From a virus (Duplodnaviria > Heunggongvirae > Uroviricota > Caudoviricetes), in IMG/VR virus record IMGVR_UViG_3300022173_000112, positions 2,916 to 66,915 of that record: a stretch of 64,000 nt of DNA; one strand, 5' to 3'. The notes below the pieces were generated by a model. It saw only the letters and a program-made list of their open reading frames with translations, was not told the DNA's origin and ran no database searches. The translations under genes were made by a program, and so were the position numbers. The first letter of the stretch is position 1. Each line of letters begins with the position of its first letter. Of the stretch, positions 1 to 51,775 are shown one piece after another.

Positions 1-1
1 A

Positions 2-109
2 AAGGAGGAAGACGGCACTCGTGAAGTCAAGAACGATACCTACACGCTCGTCATCGAACGCCCCGTGCGTCACATGACCAGCATCGACTTGATGAATCCG
101 TATCAGTAA
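2..109 (+). CDS. 3' end of a plus-strand gene entering from upstream (partial)
   Basis: Open frame from the window edge to TAA at 107-109, followed by the first hairpin-leader element. Confidence 0.25.
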   Translation, partial: KEEDGTREVKNDTYTLVIERPVRHMTSIDLMNPYQ

Positions 110-121
110 AGCAACCGGGCA

Positions 122-165
122 CGATCCAGCGGGTTATACTGGGTCGTCGGAATCGCCGTACACTC
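122..165 (+). promoter_or_regulatory. Early-region hairpin+leader element R1
   Basis: Hairpin cgatccag-N6-ctgggtcg, then conserved tcGGAAtCGCCGTACAC, then RBS and ATG at 185. Confidence 0.5.
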
Positions 166-184
166 TTACCTCAAGGAGAAAGCC

Positions 185-466
185 ATGAGAATCATCTGGC
201 AACGGCCCGATGAGAAAGACCCGACTCGCAAGATTACGAAGATGTCCAAGGTTCTCACCGAGGACCAGGCTCAAGAGTTCGAGAAGAAACTCGATGACTT
301 GAAGCTGGTCCACAAGAGAATCAAGGACAAGGTTCCGTCGGTCAAGACTCTGGCCAAGTACATGGACGATTCCATCTGCCCCACGCCGGACGGCTGCAAG
401 GTCGAACCTGATGGGACATGCCAGCATGGGTGGAATGCTTGGCTGCTGATTTTGCATGTGATCTGA
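185..466 (+). CDS. Hypothetical early protein (93 aa)
   Basis: ORF preceded by element R1 and RBS aaggag. Confidence 0.5.
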   Translation: MRIIWQRPDEKDPTRKITKMSKVLTEDQAQEFEKKLDDLKLVHKRIKDKVPSVKTLAKYMDDSICPTPDGCKVEPDGTCQHGWNAWLLILHVI

Positions 467-545
467 CGTTCCCCAGCGTATGATTCGGCCCACGTTACGG
501 ACCGAACGGAAGCGCCGTAACCTCAACTTTCATGGAGAATCAGTC

Positions 546-743
546 ATGGCTGAATCGAAACCGCATCAGGTCATCGTCGATGACAACTTCAAGACCGAGA
601 TTCGCCTGTACGAATCGGAAAAGGACAACAAAGTCCTGCTGGTTCGTCTCACCCTCAAGGTGACGGATTTCGTGGTCGTCAAGGACGGCTTGCGTCAAGT
701 GTTCACGAATCTCGCGGCAGCGGTCAAGAAGTACAACGGATAG
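546..743 (+). CDS. Hypothetical early protein (alternative start at 480)
   Basis: ORF 480-743. The internal ATG at 546 has a ggag RBS 8 nt upstream. Confidence 0.4.
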   Translation: MAESKPHQVIVDDNFKTEIRLYESEKDNKVLLVRLTLKVTDFVVVKDGLRQVFTNLAAAVKKYNG

Positions 744-790
744 AATCAACTCTGGGTTCCAGCCTGCGGCCCGGATGTTTGCGTCTGTTA

Positions 791-836
791 GGGGACTTTC
801 GTCCTCAAGTAGGCTCGGAAACGCCGTACACTAACC
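791..836 (+). promoter_or_regulatory. Early-region hairpin+leader element R2 (variant hairpin)
   Basis: ggac-tttc-gtcc hairpin, then conserved cGGAAaCGCCGTACAC, RBS ggagg, ATG at 848. Confidence 0.4.
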
Positions 837-847
837 CGGAGGAACCA

Positions 848-1216
848 ATGTCAAACCAAGGTCAGAAGTGCAACCGCACCGCATGTAATAATCAGGATGC
901 TCAGTGGTACAACCACAGCACTCGGGCTTTTTACTGCGAAGCGTGTGCCGTGAGTCTGAACAAGATTCACAAGGTCGAAGCTCATAAGCTCTATGGGCAC
1001 GATCTCTGTACTCTCAGTCCGCAAGACGGCGATCTGTGTGTTGTGATTACGGATAAAGCCGTCGTGAGTCAGGGTGAATGCGATGTCATCATCGACACTG
1101 GCGATCGAGGCCAGACCGTGATGATTCCTGGCAATGCGATCGAGGCTTTCTTGGAGAAGCTCAACAAGCTCGATCTCAAACAAATTGCCAAGCACTACCA
1201 CGAGATTCACAAGTAA
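848..1216 (+). CDS. Hypothetical Cys-rich early protein (122 aa)
   Basis: ATG at 848 follows R2 and RBS ggagg (ORF track 779..1216). Confidence 0.5.
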   Translation: MSNQGQKCNRTACNNQDAQWYNHSTRAFYCEACAVSLNKIHKVEAHKLYGHDLCTLSPQDGDLCVVITDKAVVSQGECDVIIDTGDRGQTVMIPGNAIEAFLEKLNKLDLKQIAKHYHEIHK

Positions 1217-1220
1217 TCGG

Positions 1221-1260
1221 GGGCTACCCAGCGAATACTGGGTAGACGGAAGCGCCGTCC
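1221..1260 (+). promoter_or_regulatory. Early-region hairpin+leader element R3
   Basis: ctacccag-cgaata-ctgggtag hairpin, then ACGGAAGCGCCGTCC, RBS ggagg, ATG at 1278. Confidence 0.5.
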
Positions 1261-1277
1261 CTTTTCTGGAGGAATCC

Positions 1278-1493
1278 ATGTTCATTGTCACGAGAGTGGA
1301 AGACGGTCTAACAACCGTTGTTCCAGCACGGACATGGGCGGATGTCATCCCGCTTCTCAAAGTGAAAGATTGCATCCGTCGCTTGTCCGTCAAAGAAGAC
1401 GGCAAGTTCATCTTGCTCGTCAGGAGATACCATGTGGCTCATCATCCTCTTCATGATCTACCTTCTGGGCGTTGCGACGAACAGAAAACGTAG
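1278..1493 (+). CDS. Hypothetical early protein (71 aa)
   Basis: ATG 11 nt after RBS ggagg following R3. In frame with ORF 1134..1493. Confidence 0.45.
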   Translation: MFIVTRVEDGLTTVVPARTWADVIPLLKVKDCIRRLSVKEDGKFILLVRRYHVAHHPLHDLPSGRCDEQKT

Positions 1494-1503
1494 ATAGCCC
1501 GTA

Positions 1504-1543
1504 GGTCCAGCGGACAAACTGGACCAACGGAATCGCCGTACAC
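1504..1543 (+). promoter_or_regulatory. Early-region hairpin+leader element R4
   Basis: gtccag-cggacaaa-ctggac hairpin, then aACGGAAtCGCCGTACAC, RBS aggagag, ATG at 1560. Confidence 0.5.
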
Positions 1544-1559
1544 TAACCAGGAGAGAGCT

Positions 1560-2003
1560 ATGCAACTCTTTGACAACTACCATATTGATGATCGTATTGC
1601 TGATGCAGTTTGGGAAGCTCATCTTGAGTCGATTGCCAAACTGCGAAAGGAAGCGGTCATCGAAGAGACCGACTCGGAAGAAACGAAGCAATCGAAACGC
1701 AAGAAACGCATGGACGCGGCGGTGAAATCGATTCAGTCGAAACTCGCCGTGGTCATGGCGGACATGCAAGTTCTGTTGCAATTCTGGGTCGATCGTCGGC
1801 TTGTCTTTGTTGACAAGAATGAAGGAATGTTCCGCGAAGAACATGGTTGTCCTTTCGTGGAACGATTCCAGCGAGTGGCTACTTTCATGGAGGAGATTGA
1901 TGAGGAAGCCAAGTTCAATGCTGCGAAACGTCTCGTTCAATGTGGCACGGAGGAAGAAGCCCGAGACGCGATGGAACAACTCAAGCTAGATTGTGAAATC
2001 TGA
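1560..2003 (+). CDS. Hypothetical early protein (147 aa)
   Basis: ORF directly after R4. Confidence 0.55.
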   Translation: MQLFDNYHIDDRIADAVWEAHLESIAKLRKEAVIEETDSEETKQSKRKKRMDAAVKSIQSKLAVVMADMQVLLQFWVDRRLVFVDKNEGMFREEHGCPFVERFQRVATFMEEIDEEAKFNAAKRLVQCGTEEEARDAMEQLKLDCEI

Positions 2004-2008
2004 CCAGG

Positions 2009-2050
2009 GGCTACCCAGTGGTATATCTGGGTAGACGGAAGTGCCGTACC
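2009..2050 (+). promoter_or_regulatory. Early-region hairpin+leader element R5
   Basis: ctacccag-tggtatat-ctgggtag hairpin, then ACGGAAGtGCCGTACC, RBS, ATG at 2067. Confidence 0.5.
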
Positions 2051-2066
2051 CTTACAGGAGAGAACC

Positions 2067-2333
2067 ATGCCGTTGAAATTCCGACTGATTGAGGAAGTGA
2101 ATGACTTCGGTTCTACTCTTACCACGGAGTATGAAGGCTTCACTCACCAGATTACCAAGGCAAACATCAGAGACTACATCTTTGTGATTGCCTGGTTGGA
2201 CGGTGAGCAAGACTATTGGATTGTAGACGGTGAAGCTGGCATTGCCGAGCTAAGCCGACACTACATGGACATGGTAGGAATCGTTCCCGAGTTCATGAGG
2301 ATGAGATATGAAGACCCTACAACAAGTTCGTGA
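2067..2333 (+). CDS. Hypothetical early protein (88 aa)
   Basis: ORF after R5. Confidence 0.5.
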   Translation: MPLKFRLIEEVNDFGSTLTTEYEGFTHQITKANIRDYIFVIAWLDGEQDYWIVDGEAGIAELSRHYMDMVGIVPEFMRMRYEDPTTSS

Positions 2334-2583
2334 CTTCGTCGAGAACAGCAAGGGTCGAATCTTTTCCGTTCGATTCGTCAAGCGGGGCACAATTCAACTG
2401 CGTCAAATGCGTTGCAAAACGTATGTCAAGGATGCCTTGAAAGGTGGCGAGCAATCGTACAACCCCAAGGACTACTTGCTTGTCAACGTCTATGACATGG
2501 ACGCAAAGCATTACAAGTGTTTCCCGCTCGATGGGTTGAAAGAGATTCTGCTCGATGGTGAGTGGCACGAAGTCAAAGGCTAA
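2308..2583 (+). CDS. Hypothetical early protein (91 aa), overlaps the preceding gene by 26 nt
   Basis: ORF track. No hairpin element of its own. Confidence 0.4.
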   Translation: MKTLQQVRDFVENSKGRIFSVRFVKRGTIQLRQMRCKTYVKDALKGGEQSYNPKDYLLVNVYDMDAKHYKCFPLDGLKEILLDGEWHEVKG

Positions 2584-2588
2584 CCAGG

Positions 2589-2631
2589 GGCTTCCCAGTG
2601 GTATAACTGGGAAGACGGAAGCGCCCTATAC
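2589..2631 (+). promoter_or_regulatory. Early-region hairpin+leader element R6
   Basis: cttcccag-tggtataa-ctgggaag hairpin. The stem differs from R5 by compensatory changes. Then ACGGAAGCGCCCTATAC, RBS aaggagg, ATG at 2655. Confidence 0.5.
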
Positions 2632-2654
2632 TCAACCAAAGGAGGAATCGGAAA

Positions 2655-3211
2655 TGAACAAGCAACAACTCGAAGCCAAGCTGCAACTCCTTGAAACGGA
2701 GATGATCTTGGCCAAAGGTGGCACTCAGAAGGAAGTCCGCGAGAAGTTCGGCGACACGTTGGGCCAAAAGCTCTACGGCATCACCCAACTGAACAAGCGA
2801 TTTCCGAACGTCAAGCTGGTTCACCGCATGACGGAACTGGACCCAACCGATCGGGATTGGATCAAATTCAAAGATATTTCAGGGAGTCATCTCCCGAATC
2901 TTTTGATGCGTTCCAACTCGGACGAATTGAAGGCTCAGAATCAGAAACGTCGGGCGTTGAGCCAAGAAGAATACTCCCCTCTCACGGAAGAGAAGTTTCA
3001 GGAGTTCATCACGAGTTGCACCGTCAAGGTGAACTGTGCCAAAATCATGAACAGGTCGAACATGGAACACGCTGCTTCGACCTATCCCATCGGAATCGTC
3101 CGCGACGTATTCAACGCCATCTTGTCGAACAACATGGACGTTCTGAAAAAGTACGCGGAACGTGCCGCCGTAATCGACGGCGTGGTCGAAGCGATTATGA
3201 AAACTTACTAA
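2655..3211 (+). CDS. Hypothetical early protein (185 aa)
   Basis: ATG after strong RBS following R6. ORF track lists 2555..3211 in the same frame. Confidence 0.55.
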
Positions 3212-3216
3212 ACGGG

Positions 3217-3256
3217 GGCTACCCAGCGTCAAACTGGGTAGACGGAAGCGCCGTCC
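3217..3256 (+). promoter_or_regulatory. Early-region hairpin+leader element R7
   Basis: ctacccag-cgtcaaa-ctgggtag hairpin, then ACGGAAGCGCCGTCC, RBS aaggag, ATG at 3278. Confidence 0.5.
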
Positions 3257-3277
3257 TCTTACAAAAGGAGTCCCTCA

Positions 3278-3684
3278 TGTTTGAAGTCCATGACCATGAT
3301 GGCAAAAAGGTCGATGGGAAATCGCCCATCATTGCCAGACTGGACACGGAGAAAGAGTGCATTGATTACATCAAGAAAGTCCATCGTGGTCAGAAGATCA
3401 CGTTGGATGCCCCTCCCTTTGGACCGGGCAAAATGGTGTCAATTGATGGTGAGTACCGCTACTTTGTTGGGGATGATAAGCCATATATCCCCGACAAAGA
3501 TGCGGGAATCACTCTCCATGTCCAGTGTACCAAATGCACGAAGCTCACGGGCGTCGTAATGACGCAGGAGCAAGCGATTGCGTATGGCAACCCTGAACGG
3601 GGCACAGTCGCGAGCATCTTTCCCAACCAGAGCATCGAGACTCAACGATTGTTGAGTTGCGGTATCTGCCCGGAGTGCTGGTGA
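3278..3684 (+). CDS. Hypothetical early protein (135 aa) with C-terminal CxxC pairs
   Basis: ATG after R7. Same frame as ORF 2857..3684. Confidence 0.5.
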
Positions 3685-3929
3685 TGAAAAGTGACAAAGC
3701 CATGATTCTGAATCCGGACCTATGGCCACGCTGGCCCTGGCTTCCGGTGAAAAAGAGCAGCACGACGTTACTCACTGGCCTTCTCTGTTGTTCGGAAGAA
3801 CACCTGGAAGGCAAGATGATTATCTATCATGCTTACCTCTACAACATGCCTCCAACGATGGAAGGCGTCAAGACCACAGAGTATCCGAATGTCGATGCAA
3901 TGCTTGCTGATGGATGGGTCATCGATTGA
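3684..3929 (+). CDS. Hypothetical protein (82 aa)
   Basis: ATG overlaps the previous stop (gtgATGa). Frame of ORF 3657..3929. Confidence 0.35.
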   Translation: MKSDKAMILNPDLWPRWPWLPVKKSSTTLLTGLLCCSEEHLEGKMIIYHAYLYNMPPTMEGVKTTEYPNVDAMLADGWVID

Positions 3930-3935
3930 GCCGGT

Positions 3936-3974
3936 TGCCGGTTCCCGACTGAACCGGACGGAATCGCCGTACAC
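3936..3974 (+). promoter_or_regulatory. Early-region hairpin+leader element R8 (different stem sequence)
   Basis: ccggttc-ccgact-gaaccgg hairpin, then ACGGAAtCGCCGTACAC, RBS aaggagg, GTG at 3994. Confidence 0.5.
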
Positions 3975-3993
3975 TCTAACCAAAGGAGGAAAC

Positions 3994-4335
3994 GTGATTA
4001 CATCTGAATTCGAGTATTACTTGGTTCAGGAGTTGATCGGGATGCCGGATCGTGAACTCGCCCAAAAGATCGAGTTGCATATCTGGTATCGTTGTGCAAC
4101 TCCACAGCCAAAGATACTCGCGAGATACTTGAAGTTGCTCAAGGAATCGGAAGACTCCGAAGGCTTCATCGAGGAAGCTCGCAAGTATCTCGACGAGAGC
4201 GGCTTGGAATTCGTTCAGCATGAAAATGGCGAATACATCTGCCGCACGCCGAACTTCAATCCACCTGATTACATCGAGATTCCCGCTCAAACGGTTCTCG
4301 ATGCCGAGAAGCAGGAGCCACAATGGCCGGACTAA
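3994..4335 (+). CDS. Hypothetical early protein (113 aa), GTG start
   Basis: GTG 7 nt after RBS aaggagg. Frame of ORF 3829..4335. Confidence 0.45.
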   Translation: MITSEFEYYLVQELIGMPDRELAQKIELHIWYRCATPQPKILARYLKLLKESEDSEGFIEEARKYLDESGLEFVQHENGEYICRTPNFNPPDYIEIPAQTVLDAEKQEPQWPD

Positions 4336-4433
4336 TAATCCTCATTGTGCTGGGTGCAATTTACATCTGGCTAACACGCCCAATCGACATTGTTGTCTAT
4401 GACATTGTCGATGAAGACGATGATTAAAACGGT

Positions 4434-4470
4434 TGCCGGTTCCCGCCTGAACCGGACGGAAGCGCCGTCC
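4434..4470 (+). promoter_or_regulatory. Early-region hairpin+leader element R9
   Basis: ccggttc-ccgcct-gaaccgg hairpin, then ACGGAAGCGCCGTCC, RBS aaggag, ATG at 4493. Confidence 0.5.
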
Positions 4471-4492
4471 CTTTCTTTCTCAAGGAGACTCT

Positions 4493-4765
4493 ATGTCCAA
4501 GACCGAGCAGATTCGTCAAGCCCTCATGCAGCATCCGAATGCTTCCGTGAGCAAACTCGCCACCAAATTCAAGGTGTCAACGGGTTTGATCTACGGCATT
4601 CGGGGTGCGATGAAGGATGCACGAAACCCGATTGTCCAGCCAAGGCCGATCGTCAAGGTCGATGGGGTCAAGCACACCATCGACACGATCATCAACATGA
4701 AGAAGCTCGCCGAATCGGTGGGCGGCTTCGACCGTTTGATCGAACTGGCGGACGCCTTGCGGTGA
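4493..4765 (+). CDS. Hypothetical early protein (90 aa), possible HTH
   Basis: ORF after R9. Confidence 0.5.
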   Translation: MSKTEQIRQALMQHPNASVSKLATKFKVSTGLIYGIRGAMKDARNPIVQPRPIVKVDGVKHTIDTIINMKKLAESVGGFDRLIELADALR

Positions 4766-4778
4766 AGAAAGAAACCGG

Positions 4779-4823
4779 GGGCTTCCCAGCGGTATATCTG
4801 GGGAGACGGAATCGTCGTACACT
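4779..4823 (+). promoter_or_regulatory. Early-region hairpin+leader element R10 (no ORF follows it)
   Basis: cttcccag-cggtatat-ctggggag hairpin, then ACGGAAtCGtCGTACAC. The next ATG hits a stop after 2 codons. This may be a decayed copy or a non-coding leader. Confidence 0.35.
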
Positions 4824-4931
4824 TGATAATCAACTCTGAACGTGAGAGCTATCGACTATGGGTTAGCGATTGCTAAAGCGTACCTTTGGGGTAAGCAGTC
4901 TAGCCTAACGTCTCGGAGTTGTAACACCGGG

Positions 4932-4973
4932 CACGATCCAGCGGTATATCTGGGTCGTCGGAAGCGCCTTACC
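4932..4973 (+). promoter_or_regulatory. Early-region hairpin+leader element R11
   Basis: cgatccag-cggtatat-ctgggtcg hairpin, then tCGGAAGCGCCttACC, RBS ggagg, ATG at 4990. Confidence 0.5.
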
Positions 4974-4989
4974 TAACTGGAGGATTTCC

Positions 4990-5769
4990 ATGCAAACCGT
5001 AGCTAAGACCTACGCCGAACTGGATGCCCTCGTCAAGGTTTTCAACCAAGGAAAGTTGGAAATCATGATCGTTGAGGGAACAGCCGGTGTTGGCAAGTCA
5101 AGCATTGTCAAGAAGAATCTGCCGAGCGATGGGCACTTGTGGCTGGAAGGCCGCGTCAGTGCTTTCATGTTCTACAAGGCTCTTCAAGAGAAAGCTGATT
5201 TGCCTGTGTACTTGGATGATGTTGACGGATTGCTGTCCAACAAGGACAACATCAACATCTTGAAGTGTGTCTGTCAGACCGAAACGCATAAAACTGTTTC
5301 GTGGCACACCAACGCAAACAAGGAAGAAGAGAAGTCGTTTGTTACGACTTCCAAAGTCCTCGTGATTACCAACGATTGGCGGACGCTGAACAAGCACGTC
5401 GATGCGGTGGATGATCGAGGATTGCTCGTGCGTTTCAAGCCAAGTGCGACTGAGGTTCACAATCATATCAAGGGCTTCTTCGACCAGGAAGTGTATAACT
5501 TCATCGGAGATCACCTGAGTCTGATTCGTGAGCCGTCGATGCGGCTGTATCGCACAGCTTCGCAGTTGAAAAACCTGGATTGGAAAGCGATGCTTCTCGA
5601 TTCGTTCAAGATCAAGAAGGCGTCGTGGATTTGCGTCCTTAAGTTACGCGCCGTACAAGCCTCTGATAATCAGAAGTCACTGTTGTTCGCACAAGAAACG
5701 GGATTGGACCCGCGAACGTATTGGCGGATTAAAAAGGAATTGAAGAAACTCGCGATTACGTTTCCTTGA
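4990..5769 (+). CDS. P-loop NTPase (AAA-like ATPase)
   Basis: Walker A GTAGVGKSS near the N-terminus. 259 aa. Last gene of the plus-strand block. Confidence 0.55.
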   Translation: MQTVAKTYAELDALVKVFNQGKLEIMIVEGTAGVGKSSIVKKNLPSDGHLWLEGRVSAFMFYKALQEKADLPVYLDDVDGLLSNKDNINILKCVCQTETHKTVSWHTNANKEEEKSFVTTSKVLVITNDWRTLNKHVDAVDDRGLLVRFKPSATEVHNHIKGFFDQEVYNFIGDHLSLIREPSMRLYRTASQLKNLDWKAMLLDSFKIKKASWICVLKLRAVQASDNQKSLLFAQETGLDPRTYWRIKKELKKLAITFP

Positions 5770-6155
5770 TAATCGAATCGACCGATTTGATTACATAGTG
5801 AACAACCGTATACTGACAAACTGGCATTGAATTTTCAATGTCAATTTGTCAGTGGTCAATTGTCTACTGACAAATTGACATTGAATTTAAGGCGCGACGC
5901 GGGGAGTGGCAAGATGCCGCTTCCCGCGTCTTTTCGCTTTGAATTCAACGGAAGCGAGCGTAAATTTTCTTTTTCAAAATTTCCAGAAACGCGGCACCAT
6001 TATTGCCATTGTTTCCACGAAAAGGTAGCACCATTGCGCTTACATTTTCGGTAATCAATTGCTTAAAGTGCGATTCCAAAGGGATCATTTGAGAATTCGA
6101 TTTGGTTTTTCGATTTGAACTTGACGTGTATTACTGAACGTAGAAAAGTCGATTA

Positions 6156-6182
6156 GAAAAGGTGTCACAGAATCACCTTTTC
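6156..6182. terminator. Perfect 9-bp hairpin gaaaaggtg-N9-caccttttc in the zone where the two gene blocks meet
   Basis: Inverted repeat flanked by A/T runs between the plus and minus gene blocks. Candidate bidirectional intrinsic terminator. Confidence 0.35.
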
Positions 6183-6642
6183 AAATCAAAATAGTTTCAC
6201 CGATTTGTCCCAAAAAATTCACGCGGCCCAAAATTGACCCTACTATTTTCTTTTAATTCTCTATATTCATATCCGAGAAAGAAAGAAAGAAAGAGTTCTA
6301 ATAAAAGAGAAGAGAATTGAAAAAATTAGTAGGCGAGTTCGCCGCGCCGCTCGCAGCATTTGAAATGCCTCTAGGATGCCGTTTCCCGTTGCCAGTTTCG
6401 ACGGGGCCGCGTCCGAAACGTGAAAAGGTAAACTCACCCATTGACCCATCGCAACGCCCTGGCGCGGCATTGTGGAAGTTTCAAAAATTCCCACAAGAAT
6501 TTTTTGGGCGCAAATCGTGAAAGAAAATTGAAAAGAAATGCCGATTACTTGACCACTGACCCATGACGAATGAATCAACGCTCAAGTAATCGGTGTTTGG
6601 AAGTGTGTTTAGACATGACCCATGACTCATGAGTCAACTAAT

Positions 6643-33212: not shown

Positions 33213-34289
33213 TTATGCCTTCCTCCAGTACCGCGCTTCCTTGGGGATTCCGTCATCCGTGAGTTCACGGTAACGGAACGTGACCTGGCTCCCACGAGGG
33301 AACAACGGGTTGAAAATCCAATGAGGGACTTCCTTTTCAGGGTTCGCTCTTGCCCATTCTTGGGCATTCAGTTGTGTATCGACCGAAGCGAGGGTACGCT
33401 CCGATTCTTTGAACCCTGACAACTCCAACCTTTTCCCGTTGTAGTTGGTAATCAGGGCACCCATCATGCCGAGCAATTTGCTGCCCTTGTCGGTCTCTCG
33501 GCCAGTCGTATAACCCGTGACGATTGCTTCCGCATCATTGAAGTCTTTGACTTTCAAGATGTTGTAGCTTCGTCTTGGTTCCCAACTTGCCGAAGGCTTG
33601 CGAAGCATGATTCCTTCGCCGCCCTTATCAAGAACCTCATTGAGCATACGCTCCAACTCGGCGACTGCACCCGGCGTACTGAATGGCATACGCCACTGAG
33701 TATGCACTTGAAGATTCTCGGTGATCTTCAAATTGCTGCACAGGTAGTTGTGAATCGCCTCGTAAGAGGACAACGGTGGCATGATGCCCTTGAAGTTCTC
33801 TTTCCACCAAGGGAAGCAACCTCGGAGAAAGACCTTGTAGGCTTGGACAGAGACATCACCATCCTGAAACAAGCTGGCAGGCCAAGGCATGTCGAAGACC
33901 ATGTACTTGACATTCCGCCAACCCGGACCAGGGTTGTGATCCTTGACCGTGGCCTGATTCGTCTGGAAGTTTCCACGACCAGACCACAGTTCACCGTCCA
34001 AACAGTAGTTCGGAAGTTGGTCAAGGAACCAATCCGGAGCGTAGATCACGTTGCCATAACGTGACCACAGACCCGTGGCAATCACTTCGTTGACACGAAT
34101 GTGATCCTTTTCGGTATTGGCATAAGGCACCTGAGATGCAGATTTGCCACGGCTTGCTCCGCCGTCCCACCACGCTCGTTGGCCGTCAAGTTTTTCACTT
34201 GCGTACCAACCAGCGGGTGAGTGCTTCTTGGCGTCATAAACGTGAGCAAGTTGCACATACTCACGTTTCAAAAGATTGCGACTTGCCAT
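33213..34289 (-). CDS. ATP-dependent DNA ligase
   Basis: Motif I EKLDGQR (KxDG) and EGIMLRK (motif IV/V). 358 aa. Confidence 0.75.
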   Translation of the reverse strand: MASRNLLKREYVQLAHVYDAKKHSPAGWYASEKLDGQRAWWDGGASRGKSASQVPYANTEKDHIRVNEVIATGLWSRYGNVIYAPDWFLDQLPNYCLDGELWSGRGNFQTNQATVKDHNPGPGWRNVKYMVFDMPWPASLFQDGDVSVQAYKVFLRGCFPWWKENFKGIMPPLSSYEAIHNYLCSNLKITENLQVHTQWRMPFSTPGAVAELERMLNEVLDKGGEGIMLRKPSASWEPRRSYNILKVKDFNDAEAIVTGYTTGRETDKGSKLLGMMGALITNYNGKRLELSGFKESERTLASVDTQLNAQEWARANPEKEVPHWIFNPLFPRGSQVTFRYRELTDDGIPKEARYWRKA

Positions 34290-35736: not shown

Positions 35737-37188
35737 TTACTCTTCGAATGAGTATTCACGCGACCGAATGAAGTCGATGATTGCCTCGCTCCATCCACTG
35801 ATGTGGACGAACTTGTTGTACCCGATTCCATTCTCATTGCAACTGATGTTGATGAGGTAGTTGGAATCACCGAAGGCGTTCGCCTGCGACGGATCGAGCT
35901 TGCTGCCAGGGGTCTGGCAATCTTGCTCGTCCGTGATGACGATGACGCGGTCAGCCGTCCGCTCTTCCTGATACACATGGTCCATGACCTGTTTCAGGAA
36001 GATACCACCCTGGCCGATTTTGTGGCGAAGTTGTAACTCGCTGAAGATTCGCGACAACTCGAAACCGCGTCGAGCCGGAACTTGCATCGTCGCGTGGCGA
36101 CATGCTGTATCGTTACCGGCCGTCGCATAGATGACCGGGTTCTCGGCGATCTCTTTGACGAGAATCGCCAGGGCACCGGCAGCATCCAACCGCGACAGGT
36201 CGCTCTTGGCCGAGACTTTGCCCTGAGTCATGGACCCTGACGAGTCCACAATCAGAACCGTCTTGCCGGGGAGCTTCGGCATCTTCTCCAAGCAGCGTAG
36301 CATCATCTCTTCGATCATGTTCTGCCAGGCCGGAACAGCACGGTAGGCCGCGATGAATCGGAATGGCAACACACGATCGAGGTTGACACGCTTGGCGTAA
36401 TCAACAACGAGTTCCTTGGCCACGCCGCTCTGTTCCATATTGCGAAGATTCCGCAGGAACGCGAGGGCACCGAGCTTGTCCTGCTCCATCAGACGCGTGA
36501 ATGTCTCGCACTTGTCGGCTCCCGCAGAAAGCTCAACTTCCCAAGTATCGGGAGTTTTGAGAGTGCCTTCCGCCAGCTTGTGGTAGAGGGAATCGGTGTG
36601 TCGAAGCAAGGACTTGGCATGTCCATCTTTATAGGTGCGGTGTTTGATAACCGCAGGACCCACGTCAGCCGGCTTGGGGTGACAGAGGAACATGGCGTCC
36701 CGGAGCTTGACGGCCCCGTCACGATTGTACTTAGCCAAGGCGTACTCATTGAAGTTCCCGAAGGCTTTCGCCAGTCCTTTCTTGACTTGGGCGGAAATCG
36801 GGCACTTGCCATCTTTCCAATAAATGGCAAGGAATTCCGCCAACTCGTCAGCACGCTGAATGATTTCCGGGAGCAGGTCTTTGACCAGACCCTTGTGGCT
36901 ATCCAGCCGAGCCATTTCACGAGCGATGAGCAGCGGCACATGGCGCAGCTTCTGATTCGTGCGGGCGTCGATGGCCATGTTCGCCACCTTCTGCGGGTCC
37001 ACCTGTTTGATCAGGTTACAAATCCGCTTCGCGATCGTCTCGCCGGATTCATAGAAGGTGTCTTCCCACAACATGCACGCCATCACGGATCGCCGAAGTT
37101 GTTCTTCGGGATTCACGTTGCTGGCGATTGCTCCGCCGTGGGTGCGCTTGACAAGCTTCGGAACCTTGGTCTTCACATTCGTCTTCAT
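35737..37188 (-). CDS. rsr: Ro60/Rsr-like RNA-binding protein (TROVE domain plus C-terminal vWA with MIDAS)
   Basis: N-terminal HGGAIASNV...LWEDTFYESGE...RHVPLLIAREMAR resembles the TROVE consensus. C-terminal LIVDSSGSM (MIDAS DxSxS), GQGGI and VIVITDEQD parallel the Ro60 vWA segment. Confidence 0.55.
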   Translation of the reverse strand: MKTNVKTKVPKLVKRTHGGAIASNVNPEEQLRRSVMACMLWEDTFYESGETIAKRICNLIKQVDPQKVANMAIDARTNQKLRHVPLLIAREMARLDSHKGLVKDLLPEIIQRADELAEFLAIYWKDGKCPISAQVKKGLAKAFGNFNEYALAKYNRDGAVKLRDAMFLCHPKPADVGPAVIKHRTYKDGHAKSLLRHTDSLYHKLAEGTLKTPDTWEVELSAGADKCETFTRLMEQDKLGALAFLRNLRNMEQSGVAKELVVDYAKRVNLDRVLPFRFIAAYRAVPAWQNMIEEMMLRCLEKMPKLPGKTVLIVDSSGSMTQGKVSAKSDLSRLDAAGALAILVKEIAENPVIYATAGNDTACRHATMQVPARRGFELSRIFSELQLRHKIGQGGIFLKQVMDHVYQEERTADRVIVITDEQDCQTPGSKLDPSQANAFGDSNYLINISCNENGIGYNKFVHISGWSEAIIDFIRSREYSFEE

Positions 37189-38045: not shown

Positions 38046-38119
38046 GGGAACAAGCGGAACGGCTGCTGCCCTTTCGGGCGATCAAACCATCTTTGAAGTA
38101 ACCGTTTCCTAACGCCACG
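38046..38119 (-). repeat. Structured repeat unit 1 (GAAGTAACCG-N-CGCCAC family); immediately 5' of tRNA-His on the minus strand
   Basis: Core gaagtaaccgtttcctaacgccac (38095-38118). The variable helix GGAAACGG pairs with CCGTTCC 30 nt away. Almost identical to unit 6. Confidence 0.4.
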
Positions 38120-38132
38120 CAAACAAGGTTGT

Positions 38133-38220
38133 GGGGAACAATCGCTGTAGTTAGCCGGTATCGAGCCGGCAACCCTTTCGGGCCATCAAACCAAGAAGTA
38201 GCTACAACTATCACCACCAC
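38133..38220 (-). repeat. Degenerate copy of the structured repeat (unit 1b)
   Basis: ggggaacaatcg...ccctttcgggccatcaaacca-gaagtagctacaactatcaccac parallels unit 1. Confidence 0.3.
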
Positions 38221-38349
38221 AAAAGGGTGACCCCGGCGGACTTGCACCGCATTACCGCCTCGCGGCGGCGTGTTACCTATAGCATCCCACATTATAGGAT
38301 GCAGCCGGTGATTACACTACCTGGGTCGTAAAAGTATTAGAGGGATAAT

Positions 38350-38456
38350 AATCGGCAACAGGGGTTGGTCTTTTGCTCTGCCAGTTGAGCTACGTCCCGA
38401 AGAACGATGGGATTCGAACCCATAACCCAAAGAAGTAACTGTTACCTACGCCACTC
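38350..38456 (-). ncRNA. Composite tRNA-like module: repeat unit 2, then a T-arm, then a UUCG hairpin, then a tRNA 5' half (acceptor plus D-arm)
   Basis: Minus strand: GAGTGGCGTAGGTAACAGTTACTTC.. ATGGG-TTCGAAT-CCCAT, then CGTTC-TTCG-GGACG, then GTAGCTCAACTGGCAGAGC. No anticodon or T-arm follows the 5' half. Confidence 0.35.
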
Positions 38457-38689
38457 TAATTCGGAGCCGATGGCGGGGTTTACGAAAGACTTATCGACTT
38501 ACCCGCGAAACAGGATCGTATCATGCTTTTGGTCTCGATTCCTCATCCAAAGCGGACGAGGACCACTAAGCATTGCCACCACGCTAAGGCCCAGTGCACT
38601 GGGATGTCCGCGTTCATCGGCGATATTTTGGTCCAGAGCCTTCACGGTAACACACCGTGGCCTGCCCAGCAAAAGCACTCTGGACCAAA

Positions 38690-38760
38690 TCGGGATCGGG
38701 GATTAAAAGTCAGGGCGGCACTTTTAACAGAAGTAACCCATGACAATCGCCACCGAAAGT
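38690..38760 (-). repeat. Structured repeat unit 3
   Basis: Core 38730-38753. Inner helix GTCA(T)GGG/CCCTGAC crossing with TTAAAAG/CTTTTAA. Ends CTTTCGGTGGCG ... AATCCCCGAT. Confidence 0.4.
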
Positions 38761-38763
38761 TTG

Positions 38764-39024
38764 TTACTTGGGCTTCCACTCTTCGGGAATCTTTTCAACA
38801 TCGTTGAAGATGTTGCCCATCCGAATCTTCCAGTCTTCACCTTCCGGGCGACCGGCATGGTGATACATGGTCTCTCCCACCTGACGCCAGACTCCTTGCT
38901 GGGATTCCGGCGGCACGTAGGCCGCTCGTTTCATCAGTTGTTCCAAGTCGTTGGCCAACGCGACTTCCGTCGGCGGCAGAACTTCTTGAATGATGAACTT
39001 CACCAATCGATCCAGGTCTCGCAT
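38764..39024 (-). CDS. Hypothetical protein (86 aa)
   Basis: ORF track. Repeat unit 3 lies just past its stop. Confidence 0.45.
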   Translation of the reverse strand: MRDLDRLVKFIIQEVLPPTEVALANDLEQLMKRAAYVPPESQQGVWRQVGETMYHHAGRPEGEDWKIRMGNIFNDVEKIPEEWKPK

Positions 39025-39040
39025 GATTCTTTCCTTAAAA

Positions 39041-39247
39041 TTAACGATTCATTTCTTCCGCGAACTTCTTCCAGGCGTTGCATGTACGGACGCACCGATC
39101 ATGAACGGCTCTTGCTGCTTCAAAGGCTGTTGGCCAGAATCGTTCACCGTCAGGCCACATACCGTAGCTGGGACCATCAGCCAAAATATCAGCTAGAATC
39201 TCTTCATAGCTGGTTGGCTCATGAACAATGACGGTCAGCATCACCAA
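39041..39247 (-). CDS. Hypothetical protein (68 aa)
   Basis: ORF track. Confidence 0.4.
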   Translation of the reverse strand: MVMLTVIVHEPTSYEEILADILADGPSYGMWPDGERFWPTAFEAARAVHDRCVRTCNAWKKFAEEMNR

Positions 39248-39924
39248 CCCTCCATCGGAAATTCAAGGTACACTTGAACCTGACGACGGATTTCATTGGT
39301 CATGGTCTTCGTCCGGTCAGTGTTCGTACTGATTCGGCCGAACCAACGCCAACCATTCTTCACGGCCTTGACGCCGGTATGGAAGGCTTGCCAGTCGAAG
39401 GCAACCAAGTGGTTGTCAAGGCAGTCCTGCACTTGAACCTTACCAGCTTTGATTAACGCTTCGACTTCTTCGTGCCACTGACGGTAGACAAGCTGACCCG
39501 GTGGCACATCTTTCATCTCACATTTGCCGAACACGAACTTGGTCGGACAAATGACGCCATTCACCAGACCCATGATGTGCCGCGACTTGTATCGCGGGTT
39601 CTCATAATCTGGTTGGCCAGCAGTCAGAAAGTGCTGACCCGGAGGAATCACGGCTCGCGGCACATCGTCATGGTGCCAACCAGGGATGGCGGGATACCAT
39701 CCGGGCATCAACATGTGACACCGCGAATCGAAGACACCACCATGATAGTCCTCAGGCAATGCCTGGAGGAAGCTCTTCGTAATCGGTCCGCCATGTTCCC
39801 AAGCGTAGGAGACGGACGAGTTGAAGAACATCGGTTCGTTCTTGATGGCGTCCTGACTGAACTGATTCGGCAGAGCGAAAGGACGAACAATGAATGCTTG
39901 CGAGTCGAACACTTTCATTTTCAA
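39241..39924 (-). CDS. Hypothetical protein (227 aa)
   Basis: ORF track. His/Trp-rich. No motif recognised. Confidence 0.5.
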   Translation of the reverse strand: MKMKVFDSQAFIVRPFALPNQFSQDAIKNEPMFFNSSVSYAWEHGGPITKSFLQALPEDYHGGVFDSRCHMLMPGWYPAIPGWHHDDVPRAVIPPGQHFLTAGQPDYENPRYKSRHIMGLVNGVICPTKFVFGKCEMKDVPPGQLVYRQWHEEVEALIKAGKVQVQDCLDNHLVAFDWQAFHTGVKAVKNGWRWFGRISTNTDRTKTMTNEIRRQVQVYLEFPMEGW

Positions 39925-39974
39925 TTTCCTTAATTAAAACGGGGATTAACTGAACACGGTGGTAATCCCTGAGG

Positions 39975-40050
39975 GGCGGTTTACAGCCGCTCTCTCGGGA
40001 CTTCTCCGGACATGGTGGGGAAGTAACCGTATTCAAACGCCACCGCAAAA
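39975..40050 (-). repeat. Structured repeat unit 4
   Basis: Core 40020-40043. Here ACTTCC pairs with GGAGAAGT downstream. Confidence 0.35.
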
Positions 40051-40192
40051 AGATAACTTGGGAGTTCAGAAGGCACGGGCCATCACCTTCTACCTTAATC
40101 CTTTCTGAGGGATTAACAGGAATACCACGCTCCTGCCTACTGCCAGATTCTTGCCTCTGGCTTGCATTCTGGGGTCCGTTCAAGTTATTAGG

Positions 40193-40262
40193 TATCGGGG
40201 ATTAAAAGCTTAGGGTTGGCACTTTTAACAGAAGTATCCCTTAGCATACGCCACCGAAAAGC
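40193..40262 (-). repeat. Structured repeat unit 5
   Basis: Core 40231-40253. Inner helix GCTAAGGG/CCCTAAGC (8 bp) crossing TTAAAAG/CTTTTAA. Closing helix TCGG(T)GG/CCCCGA. Confidence 0.4.
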
Positions 40263-40357
40263 ACACGCCAGTATCCAGCATTTATTGAATGCCCCGTCTG
40301 GCCACGGTGCATCGGACTCAAACTTCCCTATGCTAGACTGTAGGGAATCTTAAAACT

Positions 40358-40432
40358 CGGGAACAAGCGGAACGGCTATTGCCATTTAAGGCATCCACTT
40401 TTCAATTGAAGTAACCGTTTCCTAACGCCACG
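40358..40432 (-). repeat. Structured repeat unit 6 (near-duplicate of unit 1)
   Basis: gggaacaagcggaacggctattgcc...gaagtaaccgtttcctaacgccac. Core 40408-40431. Confidence 0.4.
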
Positions 40433-40503
40433 AGAGTGTTGGGTTTTGCTAACCATAAGTGACCACACCAACAGGCCACCCTTCGATTCCTCCAAAAACG
40501 GGT

Positions 40504-40752
40504 TTAGAGTTGGTCCGCGAGGTAGAGCAGAGCAGCCTTGAAAGCCGCTTTGGTTTTTGCAGGGGACGCGGGGACTTCTTCCATCTTGGCCGTCATCTCG
40601 TCGAAAAGACGATTCTGTTCGGCTTCCATTTCTTCCTGCGTCGAGTTCGGTTTCGATTCGTACAACCGAAAAAACGTGACAATCGCACTGAGCGTACGAA
40701 GTGTCGTAGCCATCTTCATGGACAGAGTCAGCAGCAAAAGTTCCTTGAGCAT
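40504..40752 (-). CDS. Hypothetical helical protein (82 aa from MLKELL)
   Basis: Longer ORF 40504..40830. Only the C-terminal part looks protein-like. Confidence 0.4.
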   Translation of the reverse strand: MLKELLLLTLSMKMATTLRTLSAIVTFFRLYESKPNSTQEEMEAEQNRLFDEMTAKMEEVPASPAKTKAAFKAALLYLADQL

Positions 40753-40844
40753 CGAACGATTCCTTAAAAGAGTGTGGAAGAAACAGGGGCGAGTAACCAG
40801 CGTCAGAACCCCGATGACCCAATTACCCACCCCTGTGATTCAAA

Positions 40845-40915
40845 AATCGGGGATTGTTCGCTACGGCTTTTCGTGCAAAGGTAGAAGTAACCGTAGCAAT
40901 CGCCACCGAAAGAGC
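40845..40915 (-). repeat. Structured repeat unit 7
   Basis: Core 40884-40906. Inner helix GCTACGG/CCGTAGC (7 bp) encloses TTACTTC. Confidence 0.4.
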
Positions 40916-41069
40916 ATGTACTCACGTTATCTGTTATTCTCTTCAATCTTCGGCATCGTGCCTACTTTCGAGGCAGACCACGCCGTGAGTACGACCCATG
41001 TAGGTTACGTCCACTTAAGGACGATTGCTACCAGGGCGGGCCAGATGGGGACGGAACCCTACTCCAGCG

Positions 41070-41294
41070 TCAGGCCGGCTTTGCAGCCAGCTTATCCAGA
41101 TACTTGGCCTTGTTCACGATGCCTCGACGAATCGAGGCGATCACAGCGTTGGCACGTTTGACATGCCGCTCCGTGTACGTCTTGCCGATGAACTTCTCGG
41201 CAATCGTGCCCGCATCGAGCAGGGCACCGTCTTTGTCTCGACCTAACTTGCTGACATTGGCTTTCGTGATGTTAGTCATGGTTAGTGACTCCAA
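41070..41294 (-). CDS. Small basic protein (74 aa), possibly DNA-binding
   Basis: ORF track. Lys/Arg-rich. Confidence 0.4.
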   Translation of the reverse strand: MESLTMTNITKANVSKLGRDKDGALLDAGTIAEKFIGKTYTERHVKRANAVIASIRRGIVNKAKYLDKLAAKPA

Positions 41295-41312
41295 TGAGAA
41301 GAGGGAACGGGT

Positions 41313-41591
41313 TTAGGACGCCAGGAGATACACGCCGCGAGGTTTGTCGAAGACAATCGTGGCGATGACCACTGACTCTTCGACCTCGACTTCTTTCGGT
41401 TTGCCTTCGACGATTTCGGTCTTCTTGACCATCTGCATTTCCTTCACTTCTTGGCGGTCGCCAAAGAGCTTCTTGGCATTGGCCCGAATCTTCGTGGGCA
41501 ATGCCCCGCGACCCGGCCAGAGTTCACGCAGCGACACTTGACCGCCATTCCGTTTGCGGCATCGGTCAATGATCTTCTGAACTTCGCTCAT
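41313..41591 (-). CDS. Hypothetical protein (92 aa)
   Basis: ORF track. Repeat unit 8 lies in its 5' leader. Confidence 0.45.
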   Translation of the reverse strand: MSEVQKIIDRCRKRNGGQVSLRELWPGRGALPTKIRANAKKLFGDRQEVKEMQMVKKTEIVEGKPKEVEVEESVVIATIVFDKPRGVYLLAS

Positions 41592-41609
41592 GATGCACCT
41601 TTTCCTTAG

Positions 41610-41686
41610 GGTTGAAAATCGGGGAACAAACGATTACAGCGTCACATCACCAAAAGAAGTAGCCGTAATCAAACGCCACCGAAAGC
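41610..41686 (-). repeat. Structured repeat unit 8 (between tRNA-Trp and the gene at 41591)
   Basis: Core 41656-41679. Then ...TTCCCCGAT, RBS, ATG. Confidence 0.4.
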
Positions 41687-41758
41687 ACGACCGGGTGGGT
41701 TCGAACCACCAACCTACGGATTTGGAATCCGTCGCTCTGCCAGTTGAGCTACTAGCCG
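41686..41758 (-). tRNA. tRNA-Trp (anticodon CCA), acceptor stem imperfect
   Basis: GCTC-AACTGGCA-GAGC, ACGGA-TTCCAAA-TCCGT, GGTGG-TTCGAAC-CCACC. Several acceptor mismatches as drawn. Confidence 0.5.
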
Positions 41759-41825
41759 TGTTGTGTCCGGGAATAAGTCGAATCAGTATAGCATCCTACC
41801 ATTAGACGACAAGCCCCGAAGGACT

Positions 41826-41890
41826 CGGTGGGATTCGAACCCACATCTCTTCTTTGACATAGAAGTAACCGATTCTAAACGCCACGGAAC
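41826..41890 (-). ncRNA. Repeat unit 9 fused to a T-arm (tRNA-like module with GUC in a 7-nt loop)
   Basis: Minus strand: GTGGCGTTTAGAATCGGTTA-CTTCT-ATGTCAA-AGAAG-AGAT-GTGGG-TTCGAAT-CCCAC. No matching acceptor stem. Confidence 0.35.
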
Positions 41891-41957
41891 TAAGAACCAG
41901 GGATCAGTGAAACCGGGTTGCGCTCTGCCATGCCTGCGCTCGCACCCCTTGCGGAGT

Positions 41958-42015
41958 GAGTTAGGATTCGAACCTAAAATCACCTTGATGAAGTATCCGA
42001 TCTCGTCGCCACTGG
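41958..42015 (-). ncRNA. Repeat unit 10 fused to a T-arm-like hairpin
   Basis: TTAGG-TTCGAAT-CCTAA adjacent to core 41990-42012. Confidence 0.3.
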
Positions 42016-42019
42016 TAAG

Positions 42020-42092
42020 TTGTGTCGGGGATTATACGGTAACGGGGTTACAACGCCTAATGAAGTACCCGCTACCTTACGCCACCGAACGT
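42020..42092 (-). repeat. Structured repeat unit 11
   Basis: Core gaagtacccgctaccttacgccac 42062-42085. Confidence 0.35.
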
Positions 42093-51511: not shown

Positions 51512-51775
51512 TCACTTCTTGATCAGAGCCAGGATGGCATTGATCACGGTTTGCAAATCCAACTTCTGACCCGAGAACAGACTCAGGACGAGCGGCAGGA
51601 GAACAGCCAGAATCGTCACAAGTCCAACGCCAGCAGCCTGTGCCTGCTTGACGGCGTCACCGAGCTTTGTCTCGGCGTCGCGACCATACTGGTACGCAAC
51701 GCTCTTCAAAAGCATTTTCAGTGTTCCCTGTTGATTCGCACCAACGACACCTGCAAGGTGTTGAGCTTCGATCAT
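51512..51775 (-). CDS. Small membrane protein (87 aa)
   Basis: C-terminal TM helix. Confidence 0.4.
   Translation of the reverse strand: MIEAQHLAGVVGANQQGTLKMLLKSVAYQYGRDAETKLGDAVKQAQAAGVGLVTILAVLLPLVLSLFSGQKLDLQTVINAILALIKK

Follow-up and report, generated by a model that had tools for sequence, protein, structure and literature searches.

A repeated element, consisting of a variable hairpin followed by a conserved block (N-CGGAA-K-CGCCGT-MC), precedes nearly every gene in an array of small plus-strand genes within a 64,000-nucleotide (nt) stretch of uncultivated phage DNA (IMG/VR record IMGVR_UViG_3300022173_000112, positions 2,916 to 66,915; hereafter the window). The window holds 12 copies, all on the plus strand between positions 121 and 4972, and none in the rest of the 64 kb. 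Judged from sequence rather than from experiment, the most likely role of the element is that of a unit-boundary marker, and action at the RNA level is the best-supported class of explanation. Within that class we propose, tentatively and with somewhat less than even confidence, that the units of a polycistronic early transcript each have their 5' boundary marked by a helix and the single-stranded block behind it.

The block was searched for with the pattern ACGGAAGCGCCGTMC, allowing at most two mismatches, and the counts were compared with those from 100 shuffles. There are 13 matches in the window against 0.22 expected, and none of the 100 shuffles reached 13. Twelve of these are on the plus strand, at 147, 506, 815, 1246, 1527, 2035, 2615, 3242, 3958, 4456, 4806 and 4958. 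A covariance model was built on 54 distinct elements, with the window copies at 455-528 and 784-837 kept out of training; it recovers exactly these 12 copies, including both untrained ones, and nothing else in the window at E <= 1. The remaining pattern match, on the minus strand at 33228-33242 with two mismatches (AAGGAAGCGCGGTAC), lies in the 3' end of the DNA ligase gene and is followed by GGAGG and the ATG of the next open reading frame (ORF); the covariance model is silent there, and the match is probably due to chance. An earlier note on this DNA had counted eleven copies and described the block as invariant. We found 12, of which three match the block consensus exactly, four have one mismatch and five have two, and over the 54 elements just the GGAA, G and C positions are fixed. 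Stems and loops, put at 6-8 bp and 6-8 nt in the same note, are 7-9 bp (with one composite stem of 13 bp) and 4-9 nt. The order in which it placed hairpin, block, spacer, ribosome-binding site and start codon stands, with the spacing corrected: the end of the block lies 17-25 nt from the start codon, a separate Shine-Dalgarno (SD) sequence (GGAG or AGGA) follows the block, and the distance from hairpin to ATG is 32-40 nt. On the other side, the upstream gene's stop codon is found 7-17 nt before the hairpin (39 nt in one case).

The array is an island of 14 small genes at 185-5769, nearly all of them ORFans; it begins upstream of the window, and the plus-strand island as a whole spans 1-5769. 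Eleven of the 14 genes are preceded by an element, always co-oriented with the genes, which bears out the description of an element before nearly every gene; the three genes without one (starting at 2308, 3684 and 4323) all overlap the previous gene. That helix and block precede all 11 non-overlapping genes and none of the three overlapping ones counts in favour of a boundary at the RNA level. Element 1 has a hairpin at 121-147 (9 bp with one U.G pair, 9-nt loop) and block TCGGAATCGCCGTAC at 147-161, before gene 185-466. Element 2, with a bulged hairpin of the C.A mismatch class (484-506) and block ACGGAAGCGCCGTAA (506-520), precedes gene 546-743 and was found by the model, untrained, at E = 3e-4. 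The composite hairpin belongs to element 3 (783-814) and is followed by block TCGGAAACGCCGTAC (815-829) and gene 848-1216. Next come element 4, with hairpin ctacccag/ctgggtag (1224-1245) and block ACGGAAGCGCCGTCC (1246-1260) before gene 1278-1493, and element 5, with hairpin ggtccag/ctggacc (1504-1525) and block ACGGAATCGCCGTAC (1527-1541) before gene 1560-2003. The hairpin of element 6 (2011-2034) and its block ACGGAAGTGCCGTAC (2035-2049) stand before gene 2067-2333, to which gene 2308-2583 is coupled. Gene 2654-3211, whose product is a paralogue of the C-terminal half of the protein at the head of the array (discussed below), follows element 7, with hairpin cttcccagt/actgggaag (2591-2614) and block ACGGAAGCGCCCTAT (2615-2629). 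Two further elements precede coupled pairs: element 8, with a hairpin at 3219-3241 and again block ACGGAAGCGCCGTCC (3242-3256), before genes 3277-3684 and 3684-3929; and element 9, with hairpin ccggttc/gaaccgg (3938-3957) and block ACGGAATCGCCGTAC (3958-3972), before genes 3994-4335 and 4323-4427. The same hairpin sequence recurs in element 10 (4436-4455), with block ACGGAAGCGCCGTCC (4456-4470), before gene 4493-4765. Element 11 (hairpin 4782-4805 with one U.G pair, block ACGGAATCGTCGTAC at 4806-4820) has about 110 nt without an ORF behind it, as had been reported for this copy under the label R10, and its orthologue in a relative (L076, 11377) does have an ORF behind it. Element 12 (hairpin 4933-4958 with one U.G pair, block TCGGAAGCGCCTTAC at 4958-4972) stands before the last gene of the array, the AAA-type gene 4990-5769.

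To assess the hairpin we aligned the 54 distinct elements from the window and its relatives. In this alignment 86% of stem cells are paired; sliding the 3' partner lowers the figure to 46% at most. Covariation scores 0.343, compared with 0.115 for shuffled alignments, and none of 500 shuffles scored as high; both sides have changed in 73 stem cells where 22 were expected, and there are at least 28 distinct stems. The compensatory changes reported earlier are thereby confirmed. The variation is confined to the lower 4-5 pairs, which remain paired throughout (UA, GC, AU, UG, CG), and the internal stem mismatches are all transitions. Conserved as sequence are the top three pairs (CAG/CUG), YGG on the 5' side of the loop, the 5' flank AACCRGGG and the block itself. 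The earlier claim that structure is selected and not sequence holds for the lower 4-5 pairs and not for the parts conserved as sequence. The block abuts the 3' strand of the helix within 0-1 nt, and conservation within it is asymmetric, GGAA being invariant and the right half variable. A small CGG/CCG hairpin inside the block never varies in sequence and is for that reason neither supported nor refuted. RNAalifold predicts no further helix: neither a lower stem, nor a pseudoknot involving the 5' flank AACCRGGG, nor any other. Folds of single sequences give no lower stem. The intergenic hairpins have no U tract and are followed by ACGGAAG instead, which places them outside the intrinsic-terminator rule; three block variants (CGTCC with CTTTTCT) are weak terminator matches through the small hairpin inside the block. 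The sole structure to which the rule applies is a canonical terminator at 5896-5940 (+), a 16-bp stem followed by TTTTCGCTTT, which closes the plus-strand array.

The earlier note had suggested a search of related genomes for the block, and at least 13 related metagenomic phage contigs were found to carry the same element. These relatives come from scans of viral and metagenome sequences and have many copies each: L001 (the same contig as L082), L088, L015/L066, L008, L016, L035, L036, L064, L067, L074, L076, L084, L087, L089 and L094, with L212 added later. Contigs of the group are 90-157 kb long, come from soil, freshwater and peat, and have 12-21 copies per genome. By contrast, a scan of 185,579 species genomes gave single chance matches only and no clusters; since no bacterial genome in this species-representative set has clusters, the element appears to be specific to these phages. 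No elements were found near the DNA polymerase gene of 44 distant relatives.

Several of the relatives have split units, which run from hairpin and first block through an ORF-less insert of 81-263 nt to an anti-block, a second block (CCGGAATCGCCGTAC or CCGGGTCCGCCGTAC), a ribosome-binding site and ATG. At least 14 distinct ORF-less units are closed by block/anti-block stems of 13-22 bp, with duplex energies of -21 to -34 kcal/mol. The 5' strand of the closing stem starts at base 2-3 of the block and continues into unit-specific sequence, and once the shared core is taken out, pairing is still better between cognate than between non-cognate flanks (p ~2e-4). After each such stem a second, free block lies beside the ribosome-binding site without a local hairpin. 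The inserts (L001 8684-8880 and 9050-9345; also in L016, L035, L036, L064, L067, L074, L076, L084, L087 and L212) belong to several unrelated sequence families and have the word AGGAATCA in common. Rfam gave nothing at the gathering threshold for L001, L036 and L076, and at E <= 1 the eight loci searched (in L001, L016, L035, L036, L067, L074, L084 and L087) yielded nothing but generic long hairpins.

Two distant lineages, reached through homologues of the AAA protein, carry divergent forms of the element. In L216 a hairpin CCGGGC..GCCCGG is followed by block CCGAAGCACCGCAC. L214 has 18 plus-strand blocks of the form CGAAG(C/T)GTCGCAC (CGAAGCGTCGCAC) without a local variable hairpin; instead, nearly all units between 4699 and 9990 are enclosed by unit-specific inverted repeats of 10-16 nt, with a CAC-arm after the block and arm'-GTG before the next (for example cacaatcaaccc/gggttgattgtg and cacaacggttgat/atcaaccgttgtg). 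By eye, 16 of the 17 units are enclosed in this way; an anchored script finds arms of 10-16 nt in 8 of the 17, and it is only to the script count that the permutation p of 5e-5 applies. Several arms extend to CGAAGC/GCTTCG, so that GCTTCG pairs with CGAAGC of the unit's own 5' block. Several junctions carry the perfect palindrome GCTTCGACGAAGC. A leaderless start after the L214 block was also considered and was rejected, as the start codon had been mis-called. Neither the palindromy nor the small hairpin inside the block is kept across lineages, and the linear core GAAGC..CG.AC is; this pattern argues for asymmetric recognition. In every lineage the block comes after a helix's 3' strand, and delimited units begin at the first bases of the block.

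The gene content of the window differs from that of L001 and L076 by whole units, and the alignments break at the block. Both relatives lack exactly gene 848-1216, with the junction in the block and the two alignments overlapping by one element, and genes 185-466, 2654-3211 and 4493-4765 have been replaced, with breakpoints at +3, +36 and +4 from the block ends. In five cases the breakpoints lie +1 to +4 nt from block boundaries. Each hairpin moves with the gene upstream of it, each leader with the gene downstream. These comparisons show crossover at the block as an outcome.

The reading in the earlier note is partly supported: the elements look intercistronic, in an early operon to one side of the genome that ends in a single strong terminator, and this picture accounts for the evidence better than any alternative. 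We favour a boundary at the RNA level because there is one terminator at the end of the array, there are no U tracts after the hairpins, and there is one element per independent cistron. The enclosing stems in relatives and in L214 also place the block inside the transcript, as a stem that closes over 70-450 nt is natural for RNA and implausible as a cruciform in DNA. On this proposal the plus-strand array would be transcribed as one long polycistronic RNA, presumably early, ending at the terminator at 5896-5940, and each independently translated cistron would be headed by a helix and a directly adjoining conserved single-stranded block. The helix would be the local hairpin in the window and the long-range stem in relatives, with the pairing presumably acting in RNA and not in DNA. 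The junction of helix and block would be the 5' boundary, and the likeliest event there would be an endonucleolytic cut, which we infer to fall at the element, or the binding of a factor that recognises the sequence. A protective helix would remain on the upstream unit, and the downstream unit would begin with the block, 5-12 nt before the Shine-Dalgarno sequence. A wider form of the proposal, which we regard as doubtful, is that the early region consists of exchangeable units (mRNAs and embedded structured small RNAs) punctuated by the RNA signal, which would be read by a phage-specific factor that releases or insulates units with base-paired ends.

Several results weigh against the RNA-level boundary and call for caution. 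Wobble counts have no strand bias (four U.G against three A.C in the hairpins, and seven units against seven in the long stems), and with G.U and A.C in balance the strand of action, and even action at the RNA level, is not proven. The unit-enclosing complementarity of L214 is absent from the window itself (p = 0.58). In relatives, the copy that opens the array and a lone copy on the opposite strand at its left edge have no canonical hairpin and share the motif CCACTA..TCAAGCGGACTAG; the lone copy is followed by about 400 nt that are ORF-less and patchily conserved, an arrangement that also fits a promoter. A near-invariant sequence of 13-15 nt is what one would sooner expect in promoter or operator DNA than at the known RNase sites of bacteria. 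As for a protein that might act on the element, no RNase or RNA-binding protein was identified, the only hints in the array being a weak Sm-like match in 2308-2583 and a weak helix-turn-helix match in 4493-4765.

An early promoter or operator, one of three options in the earlier note beside T7-type RNase III hairpins and a translational operator, is weakened since the block in relatives is the 5' strand of long-range stems and is apparently transcribed. In its promoter version, which we consider unlikely, the block and the top of the hairpin would form a compact phage-specific promoter of 15-20 bp for a phage-encoded or phage-modified RNA polymerase, with the start a few nt after the block and the hairpin as the 3' end or insulator of the previous transcript, in a PeSL-like cassette. 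The geometry suits this, the block ending 17-25 nt before the ATG, and so does an asymmetric, strongly conserved block with lineage variants around a common core, as in promoter families of the T7/T3/SP6 type. The hairpin-less first and lone copies fit as well: behind the lone copy is ORF-less DNA and no gene on its strand lies upstream, and in L216 both follow A/T-rich DNA with TTGACA or TTGAAC. The order of stem-loop, signal, SD and ATG is that of PeSLs (PMC4122927). However, in at least 14 units of the main family and in several L214 units the block supplies the 5' strand of a long-range stem, and so appears to be transcribed; the sequence upstream of the L214 block is unit-specific, which leaves nothing conserved ahead of a start at the block; and the second block of split units follows a stem without a local hairpin. 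Moreover, no gene for an RNA polymerase, sigma factor, RNase or recombinase is among the top 25 families listed for the 64-kb window and the flanks read. A sigma-70 promoter would be too long for the 32-40 nt between hairpin and ATG, and sigma-70-like matches in the array of the window number eight against 8.2 expected. In the head region of L001 there are eight such matches against 2.5 expected, but none lies before an element; -35/-10, ECF-type, sigma-54 and T7/T3-like motifs picked out by eye in the loop, the block and the hairpin-less copies had inconsistent spacing and were dropped. N4 hairpin promoters (PMC4496689) also have fixed and covarying stem positions beside a conserved sequence in an early region. 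N4, however, has three promoters, each a small hairpin with a GC-rich heptamer and its centre at -11, and reads them with a giant virion polymerase, whereas the genomes studied here have 12-21 copies with stems of 7-9 bp and loops of 4-9 nt, the relatives replace the hairpin by long-range stems, and no giant polymerase was seen in what is an incomplete genome, with no ORF longer than 890 amino acids in the window. The blocks might alternatively be DNA operators, bound by a phage protein that shuts off or roadblocks early transcription; this we judge distinctly unlikely. The candidate binder would be the ParB/KorB-fold protein at the head of the array, the gene for which is bracketed by two outward-facing blocks in all three lineages, and the block diverges between lineages as this protein does (25-28% identity). 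ACGG-N5-CCGT occurs in the main block, GTGCGA-AGCG-TCGCAC is nearly matched by the L214 block, and some junctions, GCTTCCGGAA and GCTTCGACGAAGC among them, are full palindromes. The stoperators of Cluster A mycobacteriophages are likewise asymmetric, intergenic and co-oriented with transcription (PMC9283540), and KorB of RK2 has many operators, O_B (PMC11790492); both systems have many sites of 13-14 bp in short intergenic regions with the regulator nearby, comparable to the neighbouring head protein with its predicted ParB/KorB-like fold. Unlike the present element, though, stoperators and O_B have no covarying hairpin or complementary unit ends, and an operator leaves the abutting helix, the complementary ends and the element-free overlapping genes unexplained. 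The L216 block is non-palindromic, conservation in the main block is asymmetric between fixed GGAA and variable right half, and neither an integrase nor a lysogeny module turned up in the part of the genome read. Adjacency of the head protein is weak evidence, as ParB-fold proteins are common here and the window has three more.

The gene replacements raise the question of a cassette recombination site, with the block as a site-specific or microhomology crossover point and the complementary ends as halves of the palindromic attachment site of a circular cassette, as in integrons or lox sites. Homology between the window and L001/L076 breaks near block boundaries, with 848-1216 cleanly absent and three genes replaced; the hairpin stays with the upstream gene and the leader with the downstream gene; and in L214 the arms around one block come from different units while the arms around one unit are cognate, as a central crossover would give. 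The array of small co-oriented ORFans between structured repeats, varying cassette by cassette, also resembles an integron cassette array. We nevertheless regard such a site as very improbable. No tyrosine or serine recombinase, transposase or integrase was found among the families listed for the array and its flanks, and the units of the main family and the window are not enclosed by complementary ends. The conserved part lies outside the hairpin or centrally, with variable arms, which is the reverse of lox-type sites and of attC, where R''/R' boxes are at the base. Any repeated 15-mer would yield the same junctions as a side effect of homologous exchange, an argument also made for PeSLs (PMC4122927). 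Of the suggestion in the earlier note that these are RNase III processing hairpins of the T7 type, the layout stands: as in the T7 early operon, intercistronic hairpins punctuate an early polycistronic unit with one terminator. Cutting by RNase III leaves a 3' hairpin on the upstream mRNA in T7. The assignment to host RNase III, by contrast, is not supported for the window copies, and we consider it extremely improbable. The long stems of relatives (13-22 bp) and the L214 arms fall within the size range of the enzyme, but its substrates have a minimum of about 11 bp and an ideal of about 22 bp (PMC3867540), and the stems in the window are 7-9 bp, with a lower stem found neither by RNAalifold nor in single folds. 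RNase III sites usually have an upper and a lower stem around an internal loop and no conserved single-stranded block, whereas the element has a short stem and a conserved single-stranded 15-mer for which the enzyme has no need.

Among known systems, the closest in architecture and evolutionary behaviour are the PeSL cassettes of T4-type phages (PMC2839356; PMC4122927). These too have a stem-loop, a signal, an SD sequence and a start codon before many small ORFans of a plastic early region, and junctions of insertion, deletion and replacement between close relatives fall in the repeat. The PeSL signal, however, is a sigma-70 promoter (-35, N17, -10), whereas here it is a G+C-rich 15-mer with no likeness to -35/-10 sequences and too little space for them, and PeSLs have neither the block/anti-block stems nor the unit-enclosing repeats found in relatives of the window. 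The SAS and ESAS repeats in Cluster K mycobacteriophages come closest as a conserved word accompanied by an inverted repeat ahead of gene starts. SAS are asymmetric 13-nt repeats in one orientation just 5' of the starts of non-structural genes; about half of the copies have an inverted repeat with a variable spacer directly upstream, and a role in translation was proposed (PMC3203893). The SAS word contains the ribosome-binding site and lies 3-7 bp from the start, in contrast to a block that is separate from the SD sequence and 17-25 nt away, and the inverted repeats of ESAS are conserved in sequence, where the lower stem here is free to vary. Enclosure by long-range stems, as in L214 and the split units, is also a feature of the 16S and 23S precursors of rRNA operons, but there are no rRNA-like genes here. 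The element can thus be placed as a variant of known phage intergenic regulatory cassettes of the PeSL and SAS/ESAS kind, in which the RNA modules closed by block and anti-block, the unit-enclosing repeats of one lineage and the ParB-fold head protein are unusual.

The protein at the head of the array has no sequence match in Pfam or the Protein Data Bank, and its predicted ParB/KorB-like fold alone is informative. As a candidate for two-fold symmetry, the main block has 4+4 positions, the L214 block about 6+6 and the L216 block none. The lone opposite-strand block at the left array edge, with the sequence behind it, was located in L001 (~5850-6275, minus strand), L036, L076, L087, L212 (~591), L214 (~2748) and L216 (~7258). 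Ahead of the first and lone copies, which lack the hairpin, stands a motif (CAAGYGGMCTAG, CCACTA..) that shows no enrichment in the rest of the window. To the left of the array in L088 lie minus-strand genes, including one for a GpA-type large terminase, and the sequence behind the lone block, for which Rfam gave no family, may be a structured RNA or the long leader of a leftward terminase operon. In L001 the gap between the terminase side and the array (5200-5760) contains direct and inverted repeats, with GAAATTATTCGCCCCGTTTCTGTCTCTTGCTTGTG present two or three times and a 38-nt unit present twice, the latter with TTACCA-16-TATGAT on the minus strand; this may be a cos or terminal region, or a promoter region.

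If the RNA-level boundary is correct, this widespread phage group would have a compact device, defined by sequence, that cuts or insulates a polycistronic message to give end-protected units, and that could serve as an orthogonal part for operon design. In the wider form of the proposal it would be a phage counterpart of tRNA punctuation or of CRISPR-repeat processing, and the paired ends might also be substrates of the phage's own RNA ligase. Candidates for new phage non-coding RNAs are the ORF-less inserts closed by block and anti-block and the stretch without an ORF that follows the lone copy. Under any mechanism, block and hairpin provide a search handle for a phage lineage without a GenBank relative, and cassette swaps exactly at the repeat carry the PeSL concept to phages other than those of the T4 type.

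The window comes from a large uncultivated phage. From about 6.2 kb its minus strand carries genes of replication and nucleotide metabolism, among them those for a family-A DNA polymerase, a class II ribonucleotide reductase, helicases, DNA ligase, RNA ligase, Ro60/TROVE protein, dUTPase, dCMP deaminase, thymidylate synthase and three ParB_N proteins. We found no match among GenBank phages for the window DNA (by blastn) or for the DNA polymerase protein. Homologues of the DNA polymerase and the AAA protein, 40-75% identical, are present on at least 44 viral contigs of up to 157 kb from many environments (L168-L211, L212-L216), and one such homologue is in a metagenome-assembled genome at NCBI (GCA_040384425.1). 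On this sequence evidence, the window belongs to a sizeable uncultivated phage group without an isolate. Directly before the terminator, nested palindromes (TGACAAA..CATTGAATTTTCAATG..TTTGTCA) within 5815-5940 (+) lie in the gap between the plus-strand array and the minus-strand genes and have an operator-like look.

Eight tRNA genes lie on the minus strand between 21405 and 51426, and they are all that Rfam reports for the window at the gathering threshold, the elements being without any family. A Ro60/TROVE and vWA protein (35737-37188) and the RNA ligase (51772-52968) are encoded on the same strand; together with the eight tRNAs they look like an RNA repair or quality-control set. The minus strand also has a second, unrelated repeat, GTGGCG-N8-14-TACTTC, with 11 copies at 38095-42085 against 0.03 expected. 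These copies are interspersed with tRNA-His, tRNA-Trp and small ORFs just upstream, in the sense of transcription, of the Ro60/TROVE gene at 35737-37188, and are often followed by tgttaaaagtgcc...ttaatccccgat; they could be Y-RNA-like or tRNA-like modules, or a class of promoter. Finally, the word TTAATCCCCGATTTT and its variants recur in intergenic regions before AAGGAA and the ATG of minus-strand genes, for example at 38692-38706, 39935-39949, 40843-40857 and 41615-41629, and may represent a separate regulatory class, distinct from the plus-strand element.

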